Part shown: positions 2,443 to 12,742 of the stretch, piece by piece
How the letters are laid out: each line of letters starts with the position of its first letter
Numbering within the stretch: position 1 is the first letter of the stretch
Assembly (NCBI GenBank): GCA_051439605.1
Contig: JBFRWN010000093.1
Span: 1-12,742, forward strand
From: Synechococcus sp.
GTDB taxonomy: Bacteria; Cyanobacteriota; Cyanobacteriia; Thermostichales; PCC-7336
Direction: 5' to 3'
DNA: 12,742 nucleotides
Program-made: the position numbers and the translations under genes
The notes under the pieces: generated by a model
Databases searched by the model: none
What the model was told of the DNA's origin: nothing
What the model saw: only the letters and a program-made list of their open reading frames with translations

Positions 2443-2978
2443 CAAGTCTAACGATCGCTGCAGCTCTCAGCCTACAAGCAAGTCTCAAGATAGGGGAGTA
2501 TGCGATCGTTATCTACATAATGGGAATTGAGAGTCAGAATTGATCGGATAATTTTGGCTCTTCAGTACAGTTTATGCTGAATCTGTAAATCTAAGCTAAA
2601 TTAAAATCTAGAAGTTAGGTTTAGAAAGATTAGGGTCCTTATCAGCAACATAACTAGGTTTAATAATCCATTAAAGACTGAATTTATAGGATATGGGTAG
2701 TCTTTGATCGGACTAAAGTTCCCTTTAAATACCCTCTAACTCTGTCCGGCGTAGCTGCTAGAGATTTGTTCTGCGGACCCATCTTGAGTCATTGAAGATT
2801 ACTTGACTTGGAAGATGTTAATTCACGATAAACTTCAACTTACAGGGCATGGTTCAAGCCAAGGTAACACTTTTGATTGTCCATCAAACCCTCAACCCTC
2901 TAACAAATAAGTGTTTAAGAGAACTGATAACTGCTAAGAGTATTGCCCTATCGCTGGGGGCTTTGAATCACGCCGATA

Positions 2979-3032
2979 TATCTCCCTCACCCCTCGAAAG
3001 CTCCCTTCTACAAGCGAGGGGTGAGGGAGATA
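2979..3032. repeat. Perfect 18-bp inverted repeat with 18-nt loop (REP-like hairpin)
   Basis: TATCTCCCTCACCCCTCG (2979-2996) and its exact reverse complement CGAGGGGTGAGGGAGATA (3015-3032). Confidence 0.9.
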
Positions 3033-3570
3033 AAGCTTGCTGTGGCTCCTTCTTTAGCCTCTAATGTCACCCCTACAGCGTTGGAGGAAACTCTATCCAA
3101 GGACTACTATTGACATCGGCAATAACACAACTGCGTAGGGAATAAAGAGCGCTGGCTTAGAAGCGATTGGAGAAATAAAGTGTAGGTTTTTCAGCAGTAA
3201 CGAGAATAGACATGCACGGTCGAGCCTTGAATCATTTATCTAAGCATCCTGAATAAAACTGAATTTAGCATAAATTATATACACACTTTTTCCCAATATA
3301 TATCAATAGACAACAAGTAGCATTAAATTGGATGTGAAGGAATGGTTTCAAGGAACAATTATTTGTTTGCCTTGTTGAGCAACAGTAAAATTATAGCAAT
3401 TGCAAGTCAAAGACAAGTTAAATAATCGTTTGCTTAAACTTAGTTATCAGCTAAGGCTACTCAATCATACTCTCAAAATTTATGAACTTATTAAGACAAT
3501 CATTTCGTTATAGATTTTCAATGCTTTATGTTGAATTTGCACTGTAATTTCATAAAGGGAATTGCGAACA

Positions 3571-4416
3571 ATGAGCTCTATAAGTTCTCAGTTGTTAGAA
3601 ACAACGAATGAAGAGACTAGCATCGAAGCCAAGTCAAGATATCGAGTATGGCTCAAAAAGATGCCCTCGGATAACGAGCGATGCAAGATCGATCAATACA
3701 ACTATTGCATTTTAGGAATCAGCTTAGAAAACCCTAGTTTTTCAAGCGAAAAGTTATTAGCAATGACAGATTGGATAGCAACTCATTTCCAGAAATGTTA
3801 CGTTTTGATAGGAGATAGCTTGCATCGGATCACCCTACAACTCGATCAAAAACTAAGCGACAAACAAGCACTTGATCGAGCAATCCTTATGGGCAAAGAG
3901 TACATCAATATTCATATGAACATCTTTAGACATTATGAAAATAATTGTCATTTTGAGTTTATCTATTGCTCAAAGATCCAACAAAAGAAAGAGTATAGAG
4001 AATACTATAAACAAATAAAAGATTTGTTTGATAAAAATAGAGAATTCAAGAATTCTGTAAATTCTTTTTCTAGGGAATTTGTTAGACGCCGCATTCCCCT
4101 TAACAAGGAAAGTCATTCTTTGGATAAAATATTAGCCAATTCAAACAGGTCTTTTTCTAAAGGATCTTTCAACGGTCAGATTCATTTCAAGGACAAAGGC
4201 AAATTCTCCGAATCATATATAGAATTGTGCGATGAATATTTACTTGAAGAGCTAGCAATTTTTTCTTGTCTTTATAAGGATCGAGTATGCCCTATGTTCT
4301 ATCCAGGATCTTTTTCGATCTTCGAAGAGATCTACAAAGGAGAGCATGCAGAAATTCCTGCTTGCCTAAACAATATAATTTATGGAACCTTACGTCTCAA
4401 GAGACGTAAAAATTAG
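3571..4416 (+). CDS. tRNA-dependent cyclodipeptide synthase (CDPS), XYP subfamily
   Basis: Motifs ILGISLENPSFS (AlbC GxSxxN, catalytic Ser37 and Asn40 equivalents), VLIGDSLHRITL, EYLLEELAIF (Tyr178/Glu182 equivalents) and FYPG (Tyr202-Pro203, XYP type). ATG 3571 is preferred over TTG 3562 because AAGGGA at 3555-3560 lies 10 nt upstream of it. Confidence 0.88.
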   Translation: MSSISSQLLETTNEETSIEAKSRYRVWLKKMPSDNERCKIDQYNYCILGISLENPSFSSEKLLAMTDWIATHFQKCYVLIGDSLHRITLQLDQKLSDKQALDRAILMGKEYINIHMNIFRHYENNCHFEFIYCSKIQQKKEYREYYKQIKDLFDKNREFKNSVNSFSREFVRRRIPLNKESHSLDKILANSNRSFSKGSFNGQIHFKDKGKFSESYIELCDEYLLEELAIFSCLYKDRVCPMFYPGSFSIFEEIYKGEHAEIPACLNNIIYGTLRLKRRKN

Positions 4417-4521
4417 CGCTTCATTAAAAGCTTACAATAAATATATTCCTTTAAATTATTAAGATTGAATAGTCTCAGTAACTGTAAAAAAGATCAAAAG
4501 TAGGGAGTAACTAACCATCCT

Positions 4522-4527
4522 AAGGAG
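4522..4527 (+). promoter_or_regulatory. Shine-Dalgarno sequence of the SIR2-like/TIR gene
   Basis: AAGGAG 9 nt upstream of ATG 4537. Confidence 0.7.
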
Positions 4528-4536
4528 TTAAGTGTA

Positions 4537-6132
4537 ATGCCAAGTGATCGCCAACAATCTGTAGATAACTTTGGACACTACCAAGACGTAGTTGAAGCAA
4601 TTACGCAAGGAACAGTTATTCCCATTCTCAGTTCGGGAGTCAACCACTGTGGTCGCCCAAAAAAAAATGGAAAACTAGTTAATTGGCAAGCTTGTAAGTT
4701 CCCTCCAACTGAGGAAGAACTAGCTCTGTACTTGCTAAGGGAAGCGGAGTTAGAAAATGAATATCTTTGCGATACTTTAACCTGCGATACAGATAGAGAT
4801 TCACGAGAAAGATGCCAACTTAATAGGGAAGATGTAGTTACAAAGATCACCCTTGCCAGTGTTTCCCAATATATTGCCCTATGTAAAGCAAAATGGCTTA
4901 GGAATACTCTTAAGAACGTTATACAGTCATCATATCAACCTACCCCAGTTCACCAGTTCCTAGCAGAACTTCCTAACATTCTGGAAGAAAAATGCTATGC
5001 TCCCCCTTATCCTCTAACTGTAACTACCTGTTTGGACAGTGTACTAGAACAGGCATTCATCTCTAAAAACCAGCCTTTCGATCTAGTGGCTTTTATTAGT
5101 ACTCCAGAAGGGGGGCACTTCGAGCATAAAAAATATACACTCACTGAGAATGGTGTGAAGTCGGAACCAAAAGAACATATAAGGATTCCCGACGCCAACT
5201 ATGAAGGTATATCGCTCGCAGATAATCCTGTGATTCTCAAACTGTATGGAGGAGTTGAGTTTGCCCATGCAAAGTTTTGCAGAAAGATTACTATTCCCGA
5301 AGTCACCATTGCCGAAGATCAATTGCTTGATTACCTCTCTCAACCAAACATTGAAGAACTACTTCCGAAAAACTTGTTATCTATACTCAGAGATCGAGAT
5401 CGTAACCTATGGTTTCAAGAATATAGCCCTAGTTGCTGGAATCTGCGTATCATCCTTCATCGCATCTGGAGAGAACAGTTATACAATCCTGTGAAGCAGT
5501 GGTGGGCGATTGAGGAGAATCCAGAACACTTAGACCCAAAGTTTTGGGAGGATAAATATCAAGTGGAGCTTGTAAACGTCGATTCTATGGAGACTTATAT
5601 CACTGATATAGAAAATCAATTACGCAGCCTAAAATCAACAAACTGTTCACTTGACAAAGTTTCAGCTACTTCAAAGGAAGTGAGAGATAAAGTATTTATC
5701 AGCTACAGTCACCAAGATAAAGGATGGCTTGAGAAACTAAAGAGAATGCTGGCTCCTTTAACTAATACTGGCATAATTGATGGTGATGATATCTGGGATG
5801 ACACAAAAATCAAACCTGGTGAAGAGTGGAGAAAGAAAATTGAAGAAGCTCTAGACTTGGCGAAAGTCGCTATTTTAATGGTAAGTCCAAATTTTCTATC
5901 ATCAGACTTTATTGACAAACATGAACTTCCACCTCTGCTAGAAGCGGCTAAAGAAAAAGGACTGACAATCTTCTGGATTTATGTCAGTAGCTGTAATTAC
6001 CAGTTTACACCGATTCGCGAATATCAAGCCGCTCACGACGTTGCTAAATCCTTAGATCGATTGGAACCTGCAGAGCAAAACTTTATGCTGACAGAAATAG
6101 TTAAAAATCTTCATACAGTCCTTAAAAAGTAG
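4537..6132 (+). CDS. SIR2-like (SIR2_2 type, degenerate motifs) domain fused to a C-terminal TIR domain
   Basis: The N-terminal ~365 aa follow SIR2-like motif order: VIPILSSGVN (cf. VPFLGAG), PTPVHQFLAEL, VTTCLDSVLEQAF (cf. TTNYD), VILKLYG (cf. LKLHG), LWFQEYSPSCWNLRIIL (cf. FLGYSLxDWNLR). C-terminal TIR: KVFISYSHQD...IWDDTKIKPGEEWRKKIEEAL...AILMVSPNFLSSDFIDKHELP. Confidence 0.85.
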   Translation: MPSDRQQSVDNFGHYQDVVEAITQGTVIPILSSGVNHCGRPKKNGKLVNWQACKFPPTEEELALYLLREAELENEYLCDTLTCDTDRDSRERCQLNREDVVTKITLASVSQYIALCKAKWLRNTLKNVIQSSYQPTPVHQFLAELPNILEEKCYAPPYPLTVTTCLDSVLEQAFISKNQPFDLVAFISTPEGGHFEHKKYTLTENGVKSEPKEHIRIPDANYEGISLADNPVILKLYGGVEFAHAKFCRKITIPEVTIAEDQLLDYLSQPNIEELLPKNLLSILRDRDRNLWFQEYSPSCWNLRIILHRIWREQLYNPVKQWWAIEENPEHLDPKFWEDKYQVELVNVDSMETYITDIENQLRSLKSTNCSLDKVSATSKEVRDKVFISYSHQDKGWLEKLKRMLAPLTNTGIIDGDDIWDDTKIKPGEEWRKKIEEALDLAKVAILMVSPNFLSSDFIDKHELPPLLEAAKEKGLTIFWIYVSSCNYQFTPIREYQAAHDVAKSLDRLEPAEQNFMLTEIVKNLHTVLKK

Positions 6133-6186
6133 TAGCTGATCGCTTTATCTACTTTATTGAATCTATTTGTCAGGGGGTACTGACCG

Positions 6187-9100
6187 ATGCAAAGCTCAAT
6201 TCAACAACGGACTGACCAGCCTTACAAAGGTTTTGAACCTTTTGCTAGGGAGGATGCGCAACTTTTCTTTGGAAGAGAGAAAGAAATTGAGCGTATCGTT
6301 AACTACCTTAAAAGTTCTCGCATAACAGTCCTTTCCGGAACTAGTGGAATAGGCAAGAGTTCTCTCCTACAAGCAGGGGTTTACTCTTCCTTGCATCGAG
6401 AATCCCTAAATAATATCAAACGCTATGGTGTACCTAAATTTGCCGTCGTTGTCTTTGACGATTGGCAGGGCGATACCCTCAAGAAATTGATCGATCAAAT
6501 TCAAAATGAGATTGAAGAGTTAAGCAAAAAGAAATTTTCACCATGGACTTCAACTCGCGATCTTTGCGAAGTCTCTCGGCAGTGTATTCATTCCCTCGGC
6601 AAAGATAGAAAAGAAGGAACACTTTTTATTATTCTCGATCAATTTGAGGAGTATTTTCGGTATCATCCCCAACCAGAAGAGGGAAAAGGAAGTTTCGAGG
6701 TACAGTTCCCCAAAGTAGTAAACAAACTTGGACTAGGGGTAAATTTTCTTATCTCCATCCGCGAGGATATGATCGCGAAACTTGCTCGCTTCCGAGGAGC
6801 TATCCCTAAAATCCTCCAGAACTGGCTGCGACTCGAACCCCTCGATAAAGATTCTGCTTGCGACGCGATTTTAAACCCTATCTATAAAGTTTACAATTAT
6901 CAACATCAGGAAGCAAGAATCAGCGTAGAGCCAGCATTGGTTGAGAGAATATTAACAGAAATCAATTCTGATACTAAGTTTAAAAATGGATATGAGAATG
7001 GAGATTCAAAGACAAGAGATTTATTTAGATCTACAACATTTCAACCTTCTTACTTGCAAGTCTTGATGCAGGTCTTGTGGGAAGAAGAAACGACAAAGAA
7101 TTCTCGTAAACTTAATTTACAAACATTACAGGAAATGGGAGGTGCGAAGGCCGTTCTTGCAAGCTACTTCGAAAATAAATTAGAACAGCTTGCCCAAAAC
7201 TCAGATCTTCGATTCAAAGAAATAGTGGCGATGTTTATCGGTTTTCTGGTAACTCCCGGAGGTACAAAGATTTCCTATCCCCTTGAGGATTTAGCCACAA
7301 AGGCAGACATCGAGGAGAGCCAACTACGATCCGTGCTAACAGCACTTTCCCAACAACACCTTATCAACCTTGTTTGCGATCGCGATAAACTATGTTATGA
7401 AATATCCTACGATATCCTGATTCCAGTTATTCTTGAATGGCACGATACTTACTGGAAGAAAAGAAATGAGGCCAAGCTTATAGCTGAAAAAGAGTTGAGT
7501 CTTGCAGGCCCCCAAGCATTGCAAGACTTCTTAAACACTTCGCAATTAGGTGCACTTCAGAGCCTTGTACAAGCAGGGGAAGACTGTAAACAGTACATTG
7601 ATCGCGGTTTATTGTCTAAGAAATATTCAACTGTTTCAATGGAGATCGTCCTTCAACAAATATTGGATAACATTCAAGAGACTAGCCAATTAGAAAGCCA
7701 TAAAGGGGCGGTGTGTAATGTTACCTTTGACCCCGAAGGAAGATTTCTCGTGAGTAGCTCCGAAGATGGTACAGCTTGCCTGTGGGACTTGAGCGACAAT
7801 TCTTCAATGATTTGTGAGGGACATCGCAATTGGATCTGGGGACTGACTTTTAGTCCCGATGGGATGTTATTCGCCACTGCATCGGATGACAAAACTGTTC
7901 GCCTGTGGGATCTCCAAGGTCACGAGCAATTCCATTTTCCCGATCTTCCTAGCGCTGTTAAATCAGTTGATTTTAGCCGCGATGGACATTTTCTAGCTGC
8001 TGGCTGCATTGGTGGGACAGTTCATTTGTGGAACTTAGAAGGAGATCGGTTATCAGAATTTACAGCCCATCTAGCACCTGTCTTGTGCGTCAGATTTAGT
8101 CCCGATAGCAACTCTCTGGTCACTGGCTCGGCAGATGGCACGATTTGCTGGTGGAACCTGGACGGAGAAAAGCAGAAGGAATGGAAAGGACATCGCAAAG
8201 CTGTTTGGTGCGTCAGTTTTTCTCCGGAGGGGAACTATCTTGCATCCTGTAGTGCGGATAAAACCATTAAGCTGTGGGATTCAACGACAGGTAGCGAGTT
8301 GAAAACTCTAAGCGGTCATAAAAGCTGGGTTTTGAGCGTCTGCTTTAGCTCTGACGGGCAATTTCTCGCCAGTGGATCCGAAGATTGCACAGCTCGCGTT
8401 TGGGACGTAGAACGAGGCATCGAAGTAACAGAATTCGTTCACGCTGGTCCTGTGAATAGAGTTAGCTTTAGTCCCAACGGAGATCGACTAGCTACTGCCT
8501 CCGCCGATCGCAAGGTTCACCTGTGGGCGTGGCCAGACAATCGCAAGTTTTTCTTCAAACAGCAAGAGGAAGTCTGTTTCGGAGTTAGCTTCAATCCGGA
8601 TGGTCAGTCTCTTGCTACCGGAGCATCTGATGGAACTGTCTGCTTGTGGGATTGCATGGGAAATCTTCTCCAAGATTTCAAGGCTCACAAAAGCTGGGTT
8701 AAGCAAGTTGCTTTCGACCTTGACGGGAAACGCCTCGCTACGGGCTCAGCTGATGGCACTATCGGTCTCTGGGACCTAAAAGGCAACGAGTTAGCCCGAT
8801 TCGGAGAACATCGAGCGCCATTCTGGAGCGTCAGTTTTAGTCCTAACGGACAGTATCTCGCGAGCGGCTCGGGGGACGGGGTTATCGTGCTGTGGAACTT
8901 ACAAAGTGACGTAGCAAAGTCATTTTTAGGTCGCTTGGGAGCGATTTGGAGTATCGGTTTCAGTCCCGATGGACAGTTGCTTGCCAGTGGTTCGGAAGAT
9001 GGAACTGTCCGACTGTGGGATTTGCAGGGTAAGGAGCTGGTTAAATTTCATCGGCCTCACGGACCCATTTTGAGTGTTAGTTTTCATCCCGATCCTGGGA

Positions 9101-9483
9101 AACAACTTCTAGTTAGCAGCTCATCTGAGGGCACAATATGTCTGTGGGATCTGCAGACAGGGCAGTTGCTCGCAGAATTTCAAGCTCATCAAGTCCCAAT
9201 ATGGAGTGTCAGTTTTAGTCCTGGCGGACAATATTTTGCCAGTGGCTCAACTGACCGCACTGCCTGTTTGTGGGATCTCGAAGCCTGTTTGAGGGATCTT
9301 AAAGACAAGAAAGTAGCCGTATTTCGAGGTCACAAGGGACCAGTCAGGAGTCTCAGCTTTAGTTCGGATGGCCAATTTTTAGCAACGGCTTCATCGGATG
9401 GCACAGCAAGGCTATGGCGAGCGCAGCTTGAAGATTTCGAGCATTTGCTGGCCAGGGGACACAAATGGTTGAGCGCATCTTAG
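6187..9483 (+). CDS. STAND (nSTAND1-like) NTPase with 14 C-terminal WD40 repeats and no N-terminal effector domain
   Basis: Begins almost directly with PYKGFEPFAREDAQLFFGRE. Walker A GTSGIGKSS, Walker B FIILDQFEE, ISIRED, PSYLQV. Fourteen countable WD40 units (FSPDG...LASGSxDGTVRLWD) at ~7690-9420, consistent with two 7-bladed propellers. Confidence 0.95.
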   Translation: MQSSIQQRTDQPYKGFEPFAREDAQLFFGREKEIERIVNYLKSSRITVLSGTSGIGKSSLLQAGVYSSLHRESLNNIKRYGVPKFAVVVFDDWQGDTLKKLIDQIQNEIEELSKKKFSPWTSTRDLCEVSRQCIHSLGKDRKEGTLFIILDQFEEYFRYHPQPEEGKGSFEVQFPKVVNKLGLGVNFLISIREDMIAKLARFRGAIPKILQNWLRLEPLDKDSACDAILNPIYKVYNYQHQEARISVEPALVERILTEINSDTKFKNGYENGDSKTRDLFRSTTFQPSYLQVLMQVLWEEETTKNSRKLNLQTLQEMGGAKAVLASYFENKLEQLAQNSDLRFKEIVAMFIGFLVTPGGTKISYPLEDLATKADIEESQLRSVLTALSQQHLINLVCDRDKLCYEISYDILIPVILEWHDTYWKKRNEAKLIAEKELSLAGPQALQDFLNTSQLGALQSLVQAGEDCKQYIDRGLLSKKYSTVSMEIVLQQILDNIQETSQLESHKGAVCNVTFDPEGRFLVSSSEDGTACLWDLSDNSSMICEGHRNWIWGLTFSPDGMLFATASDDKTVRLWDLQGHEQFHFPDLPSAVKSVDFSRDGHFLAAGCIGGTVHLWNLEGDRLSEFTAHLAPVLCVRFSPDSNSLVTGSADGTICWWNLDGEKQKEWKGHRKAVWCVSFSPEGNYLASCSADKTIKLWDSTTGSELKTLSGHKSWVLSVCFSSDGQFLASGSEDCTARVWDVERGIEVTEFVHAGPVNRVSFSPNGDRLATASADRKVHLWAWPDNRKFFFKQQEEVCFGVSFNPDGQSLATGASDGTVCLWDCMGNLLQDFKAHKSWVKQVAFDLDGKRLATGSADGTIGLWDLKGNELARFGEHRAPFWSVSFSPNGQYLASGSGDGVIVLWNLQSDVAKSFLGRLGAIWSIGFSPDGQLLASGSEDGTVRLWDLQGKELVKFHRPHGPILSVSFHPDPGKQLLVSSSSEGTICLWDLQTGQLLAEFQAHQVPIWSVSFSPGGQYFASGSTDRTACLWDLEACLRDLKDKKVAVFRGHKGPVRSLSFSSDGQFLATASSDGTARLWRAQLEDFEHLLARGHKWLSAS

Positions 9484-9555
9484 TGTTTTAGACGATCGGG
9501 CTTCGCGGTCATCTTTGTTGGAATGGAAGCAAAGTAAAACTTATGGCATGGAGAG

Positions 9556-9582
9556 GCTGAATAAGCTGAATAGGTTGAATAG
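9556..9582 (+). repeat. Three 9-bp tandem repeats
   Basis: GCTGAATAA GCTGAATAG GTTGAATAG. Confidence 0.8.
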
Positions 9583-9660
9583 GCCTTTAGCAAAATCGAA
9601 TTGCTCAAAGACAGCATCACAGACGAGAAGAAGTTGTCTAAGCTAAAGGGTTTTCAGGAA

Positions 9661-9756
9661 TATAGCGGTTTTCATTGGAGTGAGGTACAAGACTGTATCT
9701 ACAACTTTTGTATAGCAAGACTTTGGGTGTACCTCATTGATGCCGAAACCGCTATA
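9661..9756. mobile_element. MITE (92 bp plus TA target duplication), probably IS630-family derived
   Basis: 29-nt imperfect terminal inverted repeats, TATAGCGGTTTTCATTGGAGTGAGGTACA and TGTACCTCATTGATGCCGAAACCGCTATA (21/29 matches, in blocks of 11 and 9 plus one). TA flanks both sides and there is no ORF inside. Confidence 0.82.
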
Positions 9757-10144
9757 TCTGAATAAAACTTGGTTTATTTAGTCAATTACTGAGGGCGGGA
9801 GAAAGCGAATAAAACCTTTATGAGTCAATTGGCGGAATCCAACATCGATATACTTATCAATGCCCAACAGAAAAGAATTTATCAGACTATCCAACTAGAG
9901 TAAAATGCAGAACTAATATTACTCTTGGCATTCACTCGAATGTCTTAAAGCCTTTACAAGTAAAGCGCTAAAACTAACACAATAATCTGATACGCCTTCC
10001 ATCTCTACTCGACTTACCTAATAAATATGGGTTACAAATACTAAATAAAACTGAGCTTTACTGAGGCATTGACGTATTAGTTTAGTAACAGATTTTGTTT
10101 ATGAGCTCCTAGACATTATAAACACTAAACACTAGGTGACAAAT

Positions 10145-10567
10145 ATGAGTCTCACAAAACCCATTCTTTTCTCAATTTTTCTGGGAATCGCCACTACTCA
10201 AATGATAATTCCAATGAAATCTTATGGAGATGCAGTTTGCCTAACTGGATCGTATGTAAGTGCTGGAACAAGTGCTGATTTAGGCCGCTTTCGCGAACCT
10301 TACCGATATACTTTACCTCCCGGAAAGTCTCCAAGTGACATTGTCGGTATGGCTGTAGATGGCGAAAATAATTATAATTTTGTTTGGTTTAGAGATGGAA
10401 CGGTAAGTGCTGGAACAAGTGCTGATTTAGACCGCTTTCGCGAACCTTACCGATATAATTTGCCAGGTCCAAATATCAAGACAAGTGACATTGTCGGTAT
10501 GGCTATAGATGGTGAAAATAATTATAATTTTGTTTGGTTTGTTGGAGGAGATTCTAAAATATGTTGA
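10145..10567 (+). CDS. Small putative secreted protein with a signal peptide and two ~49-aa tandem repeats
   Basis: ATG 10145 is preceded by AGGTG. The N-terminus MSLTKPILFSIFLGIATTQMIIPMKSYG is signal-like. Two copies of VSAGTSADLxRFREPYRYxLP...SDIVGMAxDGENNYNFVWF follow. Confidence 0.8.
   Translation: MSLTKPILFSIFLGIATTQMIIPMKSYGDAVCLTGSYVSAGTSADLGRFREPYRYTLPPGKSPSDIVGMAVDGENNYNFVWFRDGTVSAGTSADLDRFREPYRYNLPGPNIKTSDIVGMAIDGENNYNFVWFVGGDSKIC
10256..10540 (+). repeat. Near-identical direct repeat, 147-nt period, 2 copies
   Basis: Copies at 10256-10390 and 10403-10540 both start GTAAGTGCTGGAACAAGTGCTGATTTAG and end AATTATAATTTTGTTTGGTTT. Confidence 0.92.
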
Positions 10568-11351: not shown

Positions 11352-12742
11352 TTAGAAGGGCGATAGGTTTATCGAGAAATAAATTCCCTGCTCCTGCAGC
11401 GTCCGATCGCGATCCTCTCTCTCCAATAGTGGAATGCCCCAATCCAATCGCGCACTAAACTTATCGCTCAGCCGCAACTGCGCTCCCAGCCCAACCCCTA
11501 ATAAGTCCTGATTATCCGGGTCGGGCCGATCGCCAACATTCCATCCCAGCCCATAGTCGATAAACGGAATGAATTGAAATACACCGTCCACCTCCGGAAT
11601 CCGCAACACCGGAATTGCTGTCTCTGCAGAAACGAACCAACCACTATCTGTCAGTAACGCATCCTGACGATATCCCCTGACGCTATTCAGCCCCCCCAGC
11701 GTAATCTGCTCCTGAGACAACAACGGCCGATCCGCAAGCTGCACGTCCGATCGCAGCACAAACAACGTTTCAGGTGCTAGACGCCGCACGTACTGCGCCT
11801 GTCCCCGCCAAGCCCAAAACTGACTATCTGGGGAGCTCGAATTATCCGTCGCATCCAAAGCATTCAACCCAGCACTCACCTGCGATCGCGCAGCAAACAC
11901 ATACCGAGCCCCTCGCTGCGTCCAATCCTGAGACAAGCGCAAAGCCGTAATTCGAATCCGACCATCATCGTTGGCTCCCTCAGACAGCCGCACCCCCTGG
12001 CCAAAAATCTTTGTCTGACTCACCTGACCAGACAAAGAAACCCCCGCTGCTAACTCCCGTGTCGGATTTCGGATAATGGGTTGACGAAATCCCGCGCTCC
12101 AGTAGTGAGACTGACCCGTTAAATCGATCCGATCGAACGGGTCCTCAACCACCTCCGTATCGCTCAAGCCCCCCGTAAACTCAAATGTCCCGTTCAGCCC
12201 GTTAAACGGAACGCGATAGGAAAAATCACCCACATTGCTGCCATCCGTATTGGTATATCTGGCTGTTATCTTGTCGCCAAAACCCAACACGTTCCCTTGA
12301 CGGACATCCAACCCGCGCCGAATCGTGCCCACGCTCGGCACCCGACCGTTATTCGTAAACGCCGAAATCTCCCACGGATTCGCTTCCTCAACTCGAACCG
12401 TTAAAACACTCAACCCCGAACGAGACCCCGCCGACAGTTCGGCAGAAACCGACTCGATTAGCGGATCCAATTGCAACAACTGCAACGCTTCCAAAATTCG
12501 GTCTTGATTGAGAGCTCCCTCCGTAGCCACCCGCAACCGACTGCGAACGTACCCCTTCCACAGCCTGCGAGTCCCCGTCACCTCGATCCCTTCCAGCTCC
12601 CCCTCGACAATGCTAACTCTGACCACTGCATTTGTTGGTGACAGCGTTTGGTCGGCAACAATCACCGCCCCAGAGTTGAGGTAACCCGCCTGCACGTAGG
12701 CCCGTTCGATCGCCTTTTCAGCCTCAAGTAACTCCACAAACG
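11352..12742 (-). CDS. ShlB/FhaC/HecB family (TpsB, Omp85 superfamily) outer-membrane transporter, 5' end outside the window
   Basis: POTRA motifs (YVQAGYLNSGA, VRVSIVEG, LEALQLLQLDPLIESVSAELSAG), SVRGYRQD loop motif and a C-terminal Phe (YFSINLSPF). The frame stays open to the window edge, so GTG 12737 is probably not the true start. Confidence 0.93.
   Translation of the reverse strand, partial: FVELLEAEKAIERAYVQAGYLNSGAVIVADQTLSPTNAVVRVSIVEGELEGIEVTGTRRLWKGYVRSRLRVATEGALNQDRILEALQLLQLDPLIESVSAELSAGSRSGLSVLTVRVEEANPWEISAFTNNGRVPSVGTIRRGLDVRQGNVLGFGDKITARYTNTDGSNVGDFSYRVPFNGLNGTFEFTGGLSDTEVVEDPFDRIDLTGQSHYWSAGFRQPIIRNPTRELAAGVSLSGQVSQTKIFGQGVRLSEGANDDGRIRITALRLSQDWTQRGARYVFAARSQVSAGLNALDATDNSSSPDSQFWAWRGQAQYVRRLAPETLFVLRSDVQLADRPLLSQEQITLGGLNSVRGYRQDALLTDSGWFVSAETAIPVLRIPEVDGVFQFIPFIDYGLGWNVGDRPDPDNQDLLGVGLGAQLRLSDKFSARLDWGIPLLEREDRDRTLQEQGIYFSINLSPF

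Follow-up and report, generated by a model that had tools for sequence, protein, structure and literature searches.

A cyclodipeptide synthase gene linked to a SIR2-like/TIR and STAND-WD40 gene pair in a Synechococcus genome

Results

The three-gene cassette

We analyzed a 12,742-bp stretch of DNA (the window) from Synechococcus sp., which is the entire contig C93 (JBFRWN010000093.1) of a 4.9 Mb genome in 143 contigs, and which carries a cyclodipeptide synthase (CDPS) gene at the head of a cassette with a SIR2-like/TIR gene and a STAND-WD40 gene. An earlier note on this DNA had described three genes in one orientation, separated by 120 and 54 nt, and the coordinates of the open reading frames (ORFs) bear this out. 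All three lie on the plus strand: a CDPS gene of the XYP subfamily, BcmA-like, at 3571..4416 (or from 3562), a SIR2-like/TIR gene at 4537..6132 (531 aa), and an nSTAND1-WD40 gene at 6187..9483 (1098 aa). In a consensus scan, no terminator-like site was found in the gap between the CDPS and SIR2-TIR genes (4417..4536, plus strand) or in that between the SIR2-TIR and STAND genes (6133..6186, plus strand), and a terminator-like hairpin, a consensus match only, lies at 9494..9510 on the plus strand, 11 nt 3' of the STAND stop codon. The terminator-free gaps and the hairpin after the STAND gene give a slight indication that the three genes may share a single transcript.

The CDPS ORF encodes 284 aa if translation starts at TTG 3562, with an alternative ATG start at 3571. 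It matched the CDPS family in Pfam (PF16715, 8.7e-12, 45.7 bits with a cut-off of 27) and TIGR04539 (93.6 bits, cut-off 45), and the closest solved structure is SsBcmA (PDB 9j61, E 8.6e-42), an XYP-subfamily cyclo(Leu-Ile/Val) synthase of bicyclomycin biosynthesis according to passages of PMC11580168. Residue roles were taken from the same passages, and by our own mapping the numbering of the PDB chain equals that of the paper plus 8. The catalytic residues S43, N46, Y185 and E189 of SsBcmA correspond to S54, N57, Y226 and E230 of the window protein, the cyclizing Tyr-Pro is Y247-P248, and the X-Y-P signature is satisfied with N57 at the X position, so the earlier note was right that the Ser, Asn, Tyr, Glu and Tyr-Pro residues are retained. 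In the P1 pocket, SsBcmA F39, G41, L71, G73, C125, I192, F193 and M204 align to I50, G52, L82, G84, C136, I233, F234 and M245, with identity at 7/8 positions (IGLGCIFM vs. FGLGCIFM). The P2 residues F158, D161, Y162, K165, G208, F210 and S211 align to F169, E172, F173, R176, G249, F251 and S252; four of the seven are identical and the others conservative. With Ser, Tyr, Glu and the cyclizing Tyr as the catalytic criterion (S37, Y178, E182 and Y202 in AlbC), the S, Y, E, Y and P positions are retained in 29/29 complete family sequences, and P1 is hydrophobic and BcmA-like throughout the CDPS family. Because the catalytic positions and a BcmA-like P1 are kept, the window CDPS is predicted to be active and to make cyclo(Leu-Xaa) from charged tRNAs.

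An insert of ~30 aa (about residues 180–215) in the window CDPS is also present in its closest relative, P0008 (281 aa, 73% identical). No CDPS fusions longer than 497 aa were found, a negative that is weak evidence by the search tool's own statement. A complex prediction for the CDPS and the SIR2-TIR protein gave a score of 0.00 and was used neither for nor against the cassette.

The second gene encodes a SIR2-like domain (residues ~1–365; SIR2_2, 1.8e-6) followed by a TIR domain (~380–531; TIR_2, 2.5e-12), which also gave a ThsB1-type match in PADLOC (1.9e-15). An AlphaFold model of medium confidence, built from an 8-row alignment and with a predicted local distance difference test score (pLDDT) of 66, matched ThsA (7e-11), SIR2/HerA (4e-8), DSR2 (1e-7), KomC (1e-6) and Avs5 (1e-6) in Foldseek. 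With a mean column identity of 57% in alignment A2, the SIR2-like domain is well conserved, and it has a conserved Cys cluster. It lacks the canonical Asn and His, which we take to be the ThsA catalytic pair: C165 and Y237 take their places, in TTC165LD and KLY237G where TTNYD and KLHG are expected, in keeping with the earlier note's description of the domain as degenerate. The motif aligned to KLHG of SeThsA is KLYG in all six cyanobacterial rows of A2, and in the SIR2-TIR set A3 (8 rows) it is KLYG in the window and in locus L033 and KLNG in six metagenome rows; the motif aligned to TTNYD of KomC is TTNFD in Nostocaceae and T[TA]C.D in the SIR2-TIR proteins (STC.D in L045), 8 rows together, with the alignments to these PDB chains being weak (E 0.004 for KomC and 0.22 for ThsA). 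The PDB titles 'DSR2 H171A' and 'KomC(H146N)' point to the His as the usual knock-out site. By its motifs, the SIR2 domain appears to be catalytically dead, the catalytic His being missing in every member. The TIR domain has an invariant Glu (E463, 8/8 rows), which aligns to the Glu of 'YELDG' in the NAD+ hydrolase AbTIR and is presumably the TIR catalytic Glu.

The SIR2-like family comprises 68 clusters in a 5.8-billion-protein collection, and its members have as partners a TIR, CHAT, calcineurin-like phosphoesterase or BTAD/SARP DNA-binding domain, or none. As a constant domain with swappable partners, found beside an effector-less STAND, it may serve as an adaptor or scaffold. The BTAD/SARP winged-helix activator fusions are distant members (P0093–P0099), one of them from a Gaiellaceae metagenome-assembled genome (MAG), and there the domain is possibly a ligand or adaptor module of regulators.

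The third gene encodes an nSTAND1 NTPase (1.7e-39/2e-40, Pfam) followed by 14 WD40 repeats, about two propellers, and a repeat search of the window found this region to be repetitive at the DNA level as well. The nSTAND1 match begins at residue 12, and the protein has no N-terminal effector. Walker A, located by script, is GTSGIGKS (G51–S58, with K57), and Walker B is LFIILDQFEE. PADLOC gave no match for the CDPS and no Avs match for the STAND protein, only a WD40-driven HEAT-ARM_XIII match and a weak PDC-S01 match, and by these results the cassette is therefore not a catalogued defense system. Pfam scans of the six long ORFs of the window found no P450, cyclodipeptide oxidase, methyltransferase, 2-oxoglutarate (2OG)-oxygenase or exporter, as the earlier note had stated for tailoring enzymes and inner-membrane exporters. 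A role for the STAND protein as a LAL/SARP-like transcription regulator of a metabolite cluster was considered and rejected, there being no DNA-binding domain and no tailoring genes.

Conservation of the CDPS neighborhood

To the loci from the Synechococcus genome itself and from sampled genomes we added 19 genome and 20 metagenome loci, and all were annotated with Pfam and with local hidden Markov models (HMMs) for CDPS, YbaK-like, SIR2-like, nSTAND1 and TIR domains. The CDPS tree had 37 rows, after duplicates or near-duplicates (L036, L038, L039, L049, L052) and fragments of less than 150 aa (L054, L055) were dropped. The STAND-linked CDPSs in this tree all grouped together, in a set of 19 rows with a support of 82/83. 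In 15 of these 19 rows the CDPS has a STAND and/or SIR2-like gene immediately next to it and in the same orientation, 14 with nSTAND1/SIR2-like neighbors and one with an AAA_35 pair (L004); the other four are contigs of 1.8–3.4 kb that show neither neighbor, L042 and L047 being negative on one side and cut on the other. At the off-tree loci L039, L054 and L055, a SIR2-like gene adjoins the CDPS as well. Outside the group, SIR2-like or nSTAND1 matches were found in the flanks of none of the 18 rows, which represent a BcmA-like clade, a Methylococcaceae clade, two long branches and six distant CDPSs. The SIR2-like tree recovered the same three groups as the CDPS tree. Among 401 sampled cyanobacterial genomes, the CDPS family was present in 3 and the SIR2-like family in 4, and chance adjacency of two such rare families is unlikely. 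Since the linkage labels were given after the loci had been viewed, and since the Nostocaceae rows are close kin, we count about five independent observations: the window with Prochloraceae, the Nostocaceae, the L040 group, the soil group and the AAA_35 paralog.

The full triad occurs at 12 loci and in three gene orders, in Nostocaceae, in Prochloraceae and in higher-GC soil contigs (GC 0.49–0.57). Soil-type metagenome contigs L044, L045, L046 and L054 have the architecture of the window, with YbaK-CDPS, SIR2-TIR (527–538 aa) and nSTAND1-WD40 genes, and L041, L053 and L055 begin with YbaK-CDPS in the same order as L044 and are ended by the contig edge. Contig L048 has SIR2-TIR, nSTAND1-WD40 and then CDPS, and L040 has (nSTAND1-)WD40 and then CDPS. 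The Nostocaceae cassettes (L006–L010, from Anabaena, three Nostoc and Amazonocrinis) consist of a calcineurin-like phosphoesterase-SIR2_2 protein (~720 aa), nSTAND1-WD40 (1185–1346 aa) and YbaK-CDPS (383–394 aa), and a Prochloraceae MAG (L005) has YbaK-CDPS followed by a SIR2-nSTAND1-WD40 fusion. The effector on the SIR2-like partner thus varies: it is TIR in the window and in soil, Nostocaceae have a calcineurin-like phosphoesterase, and relatives that have no CDPS a CHAT protease. The CDPS gene overlaps the SIR2-TIR gene, or is separated from it by 1–6 nt, in several of the soil loci, and four more co-occurrences are suggested solely by CDPS and SIR2-TIR matches that share one longest contig size (7506, 7177, 7070 and 8655 bp).

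The Synechococcus genome itself contains a paralogous cassette (L004, contig C44, 9836–16644, minus strand) that encodes a Ser/Thr kinase-AAA_35 protein (639 aa), an AAA_35-WD40 protein (1217 aa) and a YbaK-CDPS (384 aa), with gaps of 68 and 12 nt. Two segments of its CDPS match the window CDPS, with 36–45% identity. This AAA_35 type was found at one locus only, and is without SIR2 or TIR.

Comparison of these loci shows a CDPS clade that is co-inherited with an effector-less nSTAND1-WD40 protein and a His-less SIR2-like partner bearing a swappable effector. The conservation of these neighbors across Nostocaceae, Prochloraceae and soil contigs and over three gene orders supports the earlier note, which had proposed the CDPS as part of the SIR2-TIR/STAND module, and we consider it very probable that the CDPS functions as part of the STAND system.

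Locus L040 (2530–3681) is a decayed copy, in which the YbaK-CDPS is broken into ORFs of 83 and 293 aa, and in a Rhizobiaceae MAG (L023, 6095–7153) a 352-aa TIR-like protein (3e-14, local HMM) is encoded ~1.4 kb from a distant CDPS outside the clade.

A YbaK-like domain in the CDPS clade

Among 25 CDPS homologs (the window's own gene call excluded), the 19 that are 371–392 aa long carry a YbaK-like N-domain, and 15 have a precomputed match to PF04073 (aminoacyl-tRNA editing, YbaK-type) ahead of the CDPS domain; a family-specific HMM detects the YbaK-like N-domain in soil members too. This domain of roughly 150 aa, usual in the clade, is entirely missing from the window CDPS and from P0008 (no Pfam match in the window; alignment A1), and a tblastn search of the window with seven YbaK-like N-domains found no decayed remnant 5' of the CDPS, the best hit (E 0.07) covering the CDPS start only. 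The domain has its nearest match in 3op6, a stand-alone protein (2.1e-26), and a weaker one in E. coli YbaK (2dxa). The catalytic Lys of YbaK and ProXp-ala is K46 in the numbering of H. influenzae YbaK (passages of PMC3532385 and PMC9425024). At the corresponding position, aligned to 'YKTLL' of 2dxa and to 3op6, all 20 domain-bearing rows of A1 have E, D or Q, and the G-x-x-P-P-F-G loop is retained. Because the catalytic Lys is lost, the domain would be a tRNA-end binder rather than a second tRNA-discharging activity, one that may bind aminoacyl-tRNA ends and no longer deacylate them. A YbaK-CDPS fusion is not mentioned in the passages searched of a 2018 overview of the family (PMC5816076; 12/29 term sites).

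A sister clade of YbaK-CDPS proteins occurs in Methylococcaceae (L011, L013/L049, L016, L018/L052). There a PAS-PAS-GGDEF-EAL protein is encoded next to the CDPS in L011 and L016, and by gene size also in L018; a peptide-type ABC permease occurs in L013 and L016 and a solute-binding protein in L016, the only locus with both kinds of neighbor. This setting looks like a make-and-sense or import circuit.

Genomic setting and flanking sequence

The region from 2500 to 10500 has a GC content of 0.41, compared to 0.513 for the genome, and equally low values were found in 0.5% of 1020 genome windows of 8 kb. Within the cassette, GC is 0.35 in the CDPS gene, 0.40 in SIR2-TIR, 0.41 in the N-terminal part of the STAND gene and 0.50 in its WD40 part; the paralogous CDPS of L004 is AT-rich too (0.40), beside STAND genes at 0.50–0.53. 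Either the CDPS genes have retained a composition that is foreign or rich in AT, or homogenization with other WD40 genes of the genome has affected the WD40 regions.

A fused TIR_2 (4e-20)-nSTAND1 (1e-90)-WD40 gene, identified with Pfam, occupies 1–2445 on the minus strand and runs off the contig. It is divergent from the CDPS gene, ~1.1 kb away, with a genome-like GC of 0.53, and the cassette therefore neighbors another STAND gene, in this case with its effector fused. In the 1.1-kb non-coding stretch between them, 5' of the CDPS, all ORFs (2446–3561) are shorter than 72 aa, and an 18-nt sequence is repeated in perfect inverted form at 2979–3032, the two copies 18 nt apart. Downstream, a 143-aa ORF with no family match (10136–10567, plus strand) has an N-terminal hydrophobic stretch and two tandem repeat units, which at the DNA level are 62 and 59 nt long, 95–97% identical and spaced 147–150 nt apart. 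It adjoins an ShlB/FhaC-type transporter gene (11352–12740, minus strand; family scan). Rfam and tRNA scans had no match anywhere in the window, and the repeat search of the window found no flanking direct repeats as island borders, only the WD40 repeats and short matches at chance level.

Discussion

Relation to known systems

By sequence, the individual parts of the cassette belong to known families (XYP CDPS, TIR, defense-type SIR2 fold, nSTAND1-WD40). The window CDPS is of the same family as SsBcmA and the XYP CDPSs that make cLI and cLL, with the same catalytic Ser, Tyr, Glu and Tyr-Pro (PDB 9j61; passages of PMC11580168 and PMC5816076). BcmA, however, has neighboring 2OG oxygenases and a P450 for bicyclomycin, whereas the window CDPS has no tailoring genes and is followed instead by SIR2-like/TIR and STAND-WD40 genes, and its clade differs further in the Lys-less YbaK-like N-domain, lost in the window copy.

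The ThsB-type TIR and the ThsA-like SIR2 fold recall Thoeris. In that system ThsB is a TIR protein and ThsA a SIR2-SLOG protein, while here both domains are in one protein and a STAND-WD40 protein and a CDPS are part of the unit; moreover, compared to ThsA, the window SIR2 has no catalytic His, and the Asn is also missing in the TIR-fused forms. No SLOG or Macro sensor was matched by Pfam in the window proteins, and because these domains are absent and the SIR2 appears dead, we do not regard the cassette as Thoeris. Avs5/SIR2-STAND proteins and the Apaf-1-like WD40 STANDs also combine a STAND NTPase and a repeat sensor with SIR2, and WD40 sensors have been reported in cyanobacterial STANDs (PMC11897194; passages of PMC13581612). 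In contrast to Avs5, the effector here is on a separate protein, the SIR2 is non-catalytic by its motifs, the NTPase is of the nSTAND1 clade, and a CDPS is present; with no fused effector and no PADLOC match, the cassette is not an Avs system.

The cassette also resembles the nSTAND1 and effector-adaptor conflict systems of multicellular bacteria, with which it shares the NTPase clade, the kind of host and swappable effectors that include TIR, calcineurin-like phosphoesterase and caspase-like protease (passages of Kaur et al. 2020, PMC7159879, and 2021, PMC8195603). The adaptor here is SIR2-like instead of being of the Death-like or EAD type; the terms 'cyclodipeptide', 'CDPS' and 'YbaK' are absent from both papers. 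With Panoptes (PMC12657218) and the KomC SIR2 of Kongming (PDB 8zsf, 8zsi) the cassette shares an analogy only, in that a small molecule from a dedicated enzyme sets the state of an effector, NAD-consuming or other; as presented in those sources their signals are nucleotides, whereas the candidate here is a tRNA-derived cyclic dipeptide. A literature search, with supplements outside its scope, found no description linking a CDPS to STAND, SIR2, TIR or defense systems, and in the literature on SIR2, TIR, anti-phage systems, WD40 and defense the term cyclodipeptide was absent among the matches listed, the top 15–20 of thousands. What appears to be new, and was not found described in the literature searched, is an NLR-like conflict system with a tRNA-dependent CDPS module.

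Proposed mechanism

We tentatively put forward, as the best explanation and one with nearly even chances of being correct, that the three genes form an NLR-like (STAND) conflict cassette in which a tRNA-dependent CDPS is a dedicated accessory. The WD40 propellers would sense a trigger, after which the NTPase would oligomerize; the dead SIR2-like domain would act as the adaptor or scaffold that gathers TIR domains, and the TIR domain, through E463, would cleave NAD+ or make an NAD-derived signal. Meanwhile the CDPS would turn charged tRNAs into cyclo(Leu-Xaa), and this diffusible cyclodipeptide might tune the switch, for example by reporting how healthy the cell is, or how much aminoacyl-tRNA it has, and so keeping the system off or priming it.

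That the CDPS product acts as a ligand or regulator is a possibility we hold with some doubt, and we rate a role for the CDPS as a killing effector as less likely. The ligand role is favored because product specificity is conserved, because PAS-GGDEF-EAL and peptide-transporter genes neighbor the sister clade, because the CDPS is not swapped as the effectors are, because the tRNA-binding helper domain would not discharge tRNA, and because CDPS products leave cells, having been recovered from E. coli in the supernatant (passages of PMC5816076). In a more far-reaching form, which we think rather unlikely, cyclo(Leu-Xaa) would be produced all the time from charged tRNAs, escape quickly, and be a messenger or 'all-is-well' signal whose level reports translation health or kin to the STAND-WD40/SIR2-like complex, and whose loss or surge licenses the TIR NADase.

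Several observations weigh against this explanation. Related gene pairs exist without a CDPS: in L033 a SIR2-TIR gene (552 aa) and an nSTAND1 gene (1264 aa) lie between cytochrome oxidase genes and a CpcD-domain gene, and in L034 (8793–16667) and L035 (8709–16564), two genomes of one genus, Trypco2, CHAT-SIR2 and nSTAND1 occur together. In the SIR2-like tree, made by a quick method, these rows nest among cyanobacterial CDPS-linked rows. The closest full relative, L005 (11199–14996), is decayed, with SIR2 fused to the STAND at Walker B and neither TIR nor Walker A, and in its near-copy L039 (3865–6010) the SIR2-like gene is cut to 307 aa by a TnpB/IS605-type gene. The Nostocaceae loci amount to about one observation and the support of the clade is moderate. 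The paralogous L004 cassette holds no NADase, and its CDPS could itself be the output. The cassette has no domain known to contain a cyclodipeptide pocket, and several cyanobacterial XYP CDPSs gave no activity in E. coli (passages of PMC5816076).

Because the pair occurs without it, the CDPS cannot be an obligatory sensor-effector relay and must be a modulator, and because the CDPS-less rows nest among the CDPS-linked ones, the system can do without it and its loss or gain has happened more than once. By the evidence of these gene contents, the CDPS is an accessory part of the system and not an obligatory component.

In L034 and L035, a 91-aa gene and a gene for a cyclophane-forming radical SAM/SPASM maturase of the GrrM/OscB type (552 bits against a cut-off of 310) come after nSTAND1, spaced by 5 and 23 nt, and a 345-aa protein of no clear family is encoded next. 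This cassette for a ribosomally synthesized and post-translationally modified peptide (RiPP) occupies the CDPS position of the other loci, in one lineage.

Alternative explanations

The earlier note had suggested three roles for the CDPS: maker of a ligand, drain on aminoacyl-tRNA, or guarded bait. Readings in which the CDPS or its product is an output are kept alive by the paralogous L004 cassette, since that cassette has no NADase. In one of them the CDPS is a second effector: once the STAND fires, aminoacyl-tRNA (chiefly Leu-tRNA) would be consumed and translation would stall alongside the loss of NAD+, with the YbaK-like tRNA-end-binding domain assisting the CDPS in most relatives. STAND systems frequently carry several effectors, CDPS and YbaK-like domains both act on aminoacyl-tRNA, and as the sole non-kinase enzyme of the paralogous cassette the CDPS could be its output. 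However, the YbaK-like domain has no catalytic Lys and hence would not deacylate, the CDPS has no adaptor domain, and it is never replaced at its position, while on the SIR2-like protein TIR, phosphoesterase and CHAT replace one another. CDPSs are also routinely overproduced in E. coli for product analysis (passages of PMC5816076), from which we infer that the host survives. The evidence leans against a simple drain of aminoacyl-tRNA, and we judge a second effector to be improbable. Still less probable is that the cyclodipeptide is the output in another sense, as a diffusible alarm or kin signal released to neighbors in the filament or community when, or unless, the switch fires. Cyclodipeptides do leave the cell, the carriers with names are filamentous or colonial cyanobacteria, and the RiPP cassette would place another secreted product derived from a peptide at the CDPS position; yet that case comes from a single lineage, no exporter or receptor was identified, and nothing points to control of CDPS activity by the STAND protein.

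The CDPS protein, or its complex with tRNA, could instead be a guarded bait that the WD40 propellers monitor, such that an invader factor hitting proteins that resemble aminoacyl-tRNA synthetases or bind tRNA would fire the STAND. WD40 propellers usually bind proteins, the CDPS clade has as its constant partner a STAND that lacks an effector and carries such propellers, and the tight gene spacing suggests matched protein amounts. The CDPS fold also resembles the class-I aminoacyl-tRNA synthetase catalytic domains (passages of PMC11580168). A pure decoy would not need its catalytic and pocket residues, however, and these are conserved in 29/29 sequences; the existence of the SIR2-like/STAND pair without a CDPS in some lineages is a further argument against a bait, which we regard as having only a small chance of being correct, marginally below that of a released signal. 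The least probable explanation is that there is no functional coupling, and that the CDPS is an independent metabolite or signaling gene that travels with defense-type genes in a shared variable island. The region is indeed a low-GC island, other CDPS clades occur in unrelated contexts, and the SIR2-like/STAND pair is found without a CDPS. The neighbors, on the other hand, are present in all 15 informative members of the clade and in none of the 18 rows outside it, and the link holds over three gene orders, two GC classes, a second type of STAND and overlapping or near-abutting genes. Among the grounds on which its proposal would fall, the earlier note had named a pair of findings: SIR2-TIR/STAND pairs without a CDPS, which do occur in L033 and L034/L035, and CDPS-clade homologs with unrelated neighbors, which were not encountered.

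Significance

Bacterial NLR-like STAND systems are understood as sensor-NTPase-effector devices, and to our knowledge the known small-molecule signals of prokaryotic immunity are nucleotides. If the favored explanation of the cassette is true, a peptide-derived, tRNA-dependent small molecule would be added to the signals of NLR-like immunity. Should the messenger role of cyclo(Leu-Xaa) also be true, prokaryotic STAND systems would have their first small-molecule signal that is peptide-based and not a nucleotide, and the RiPP cassette at the CDPS position would point to a wider class of peptide-signal-coupled NLRs. The system is compact and testable, with three genes and defined residues in each (Ser54 of the CDPS, Glu463 of the TIR domain and Lys57 of Walker A). 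The analysis also defines a SIR2-like domain without the His, apparently an adaptor of general use for swappable effectors, and a Lys-less YbaK-like domain fused to CDPSs. The presence of a CDPS in such cassettes would give these enzymes a role outside natural-product pathways.

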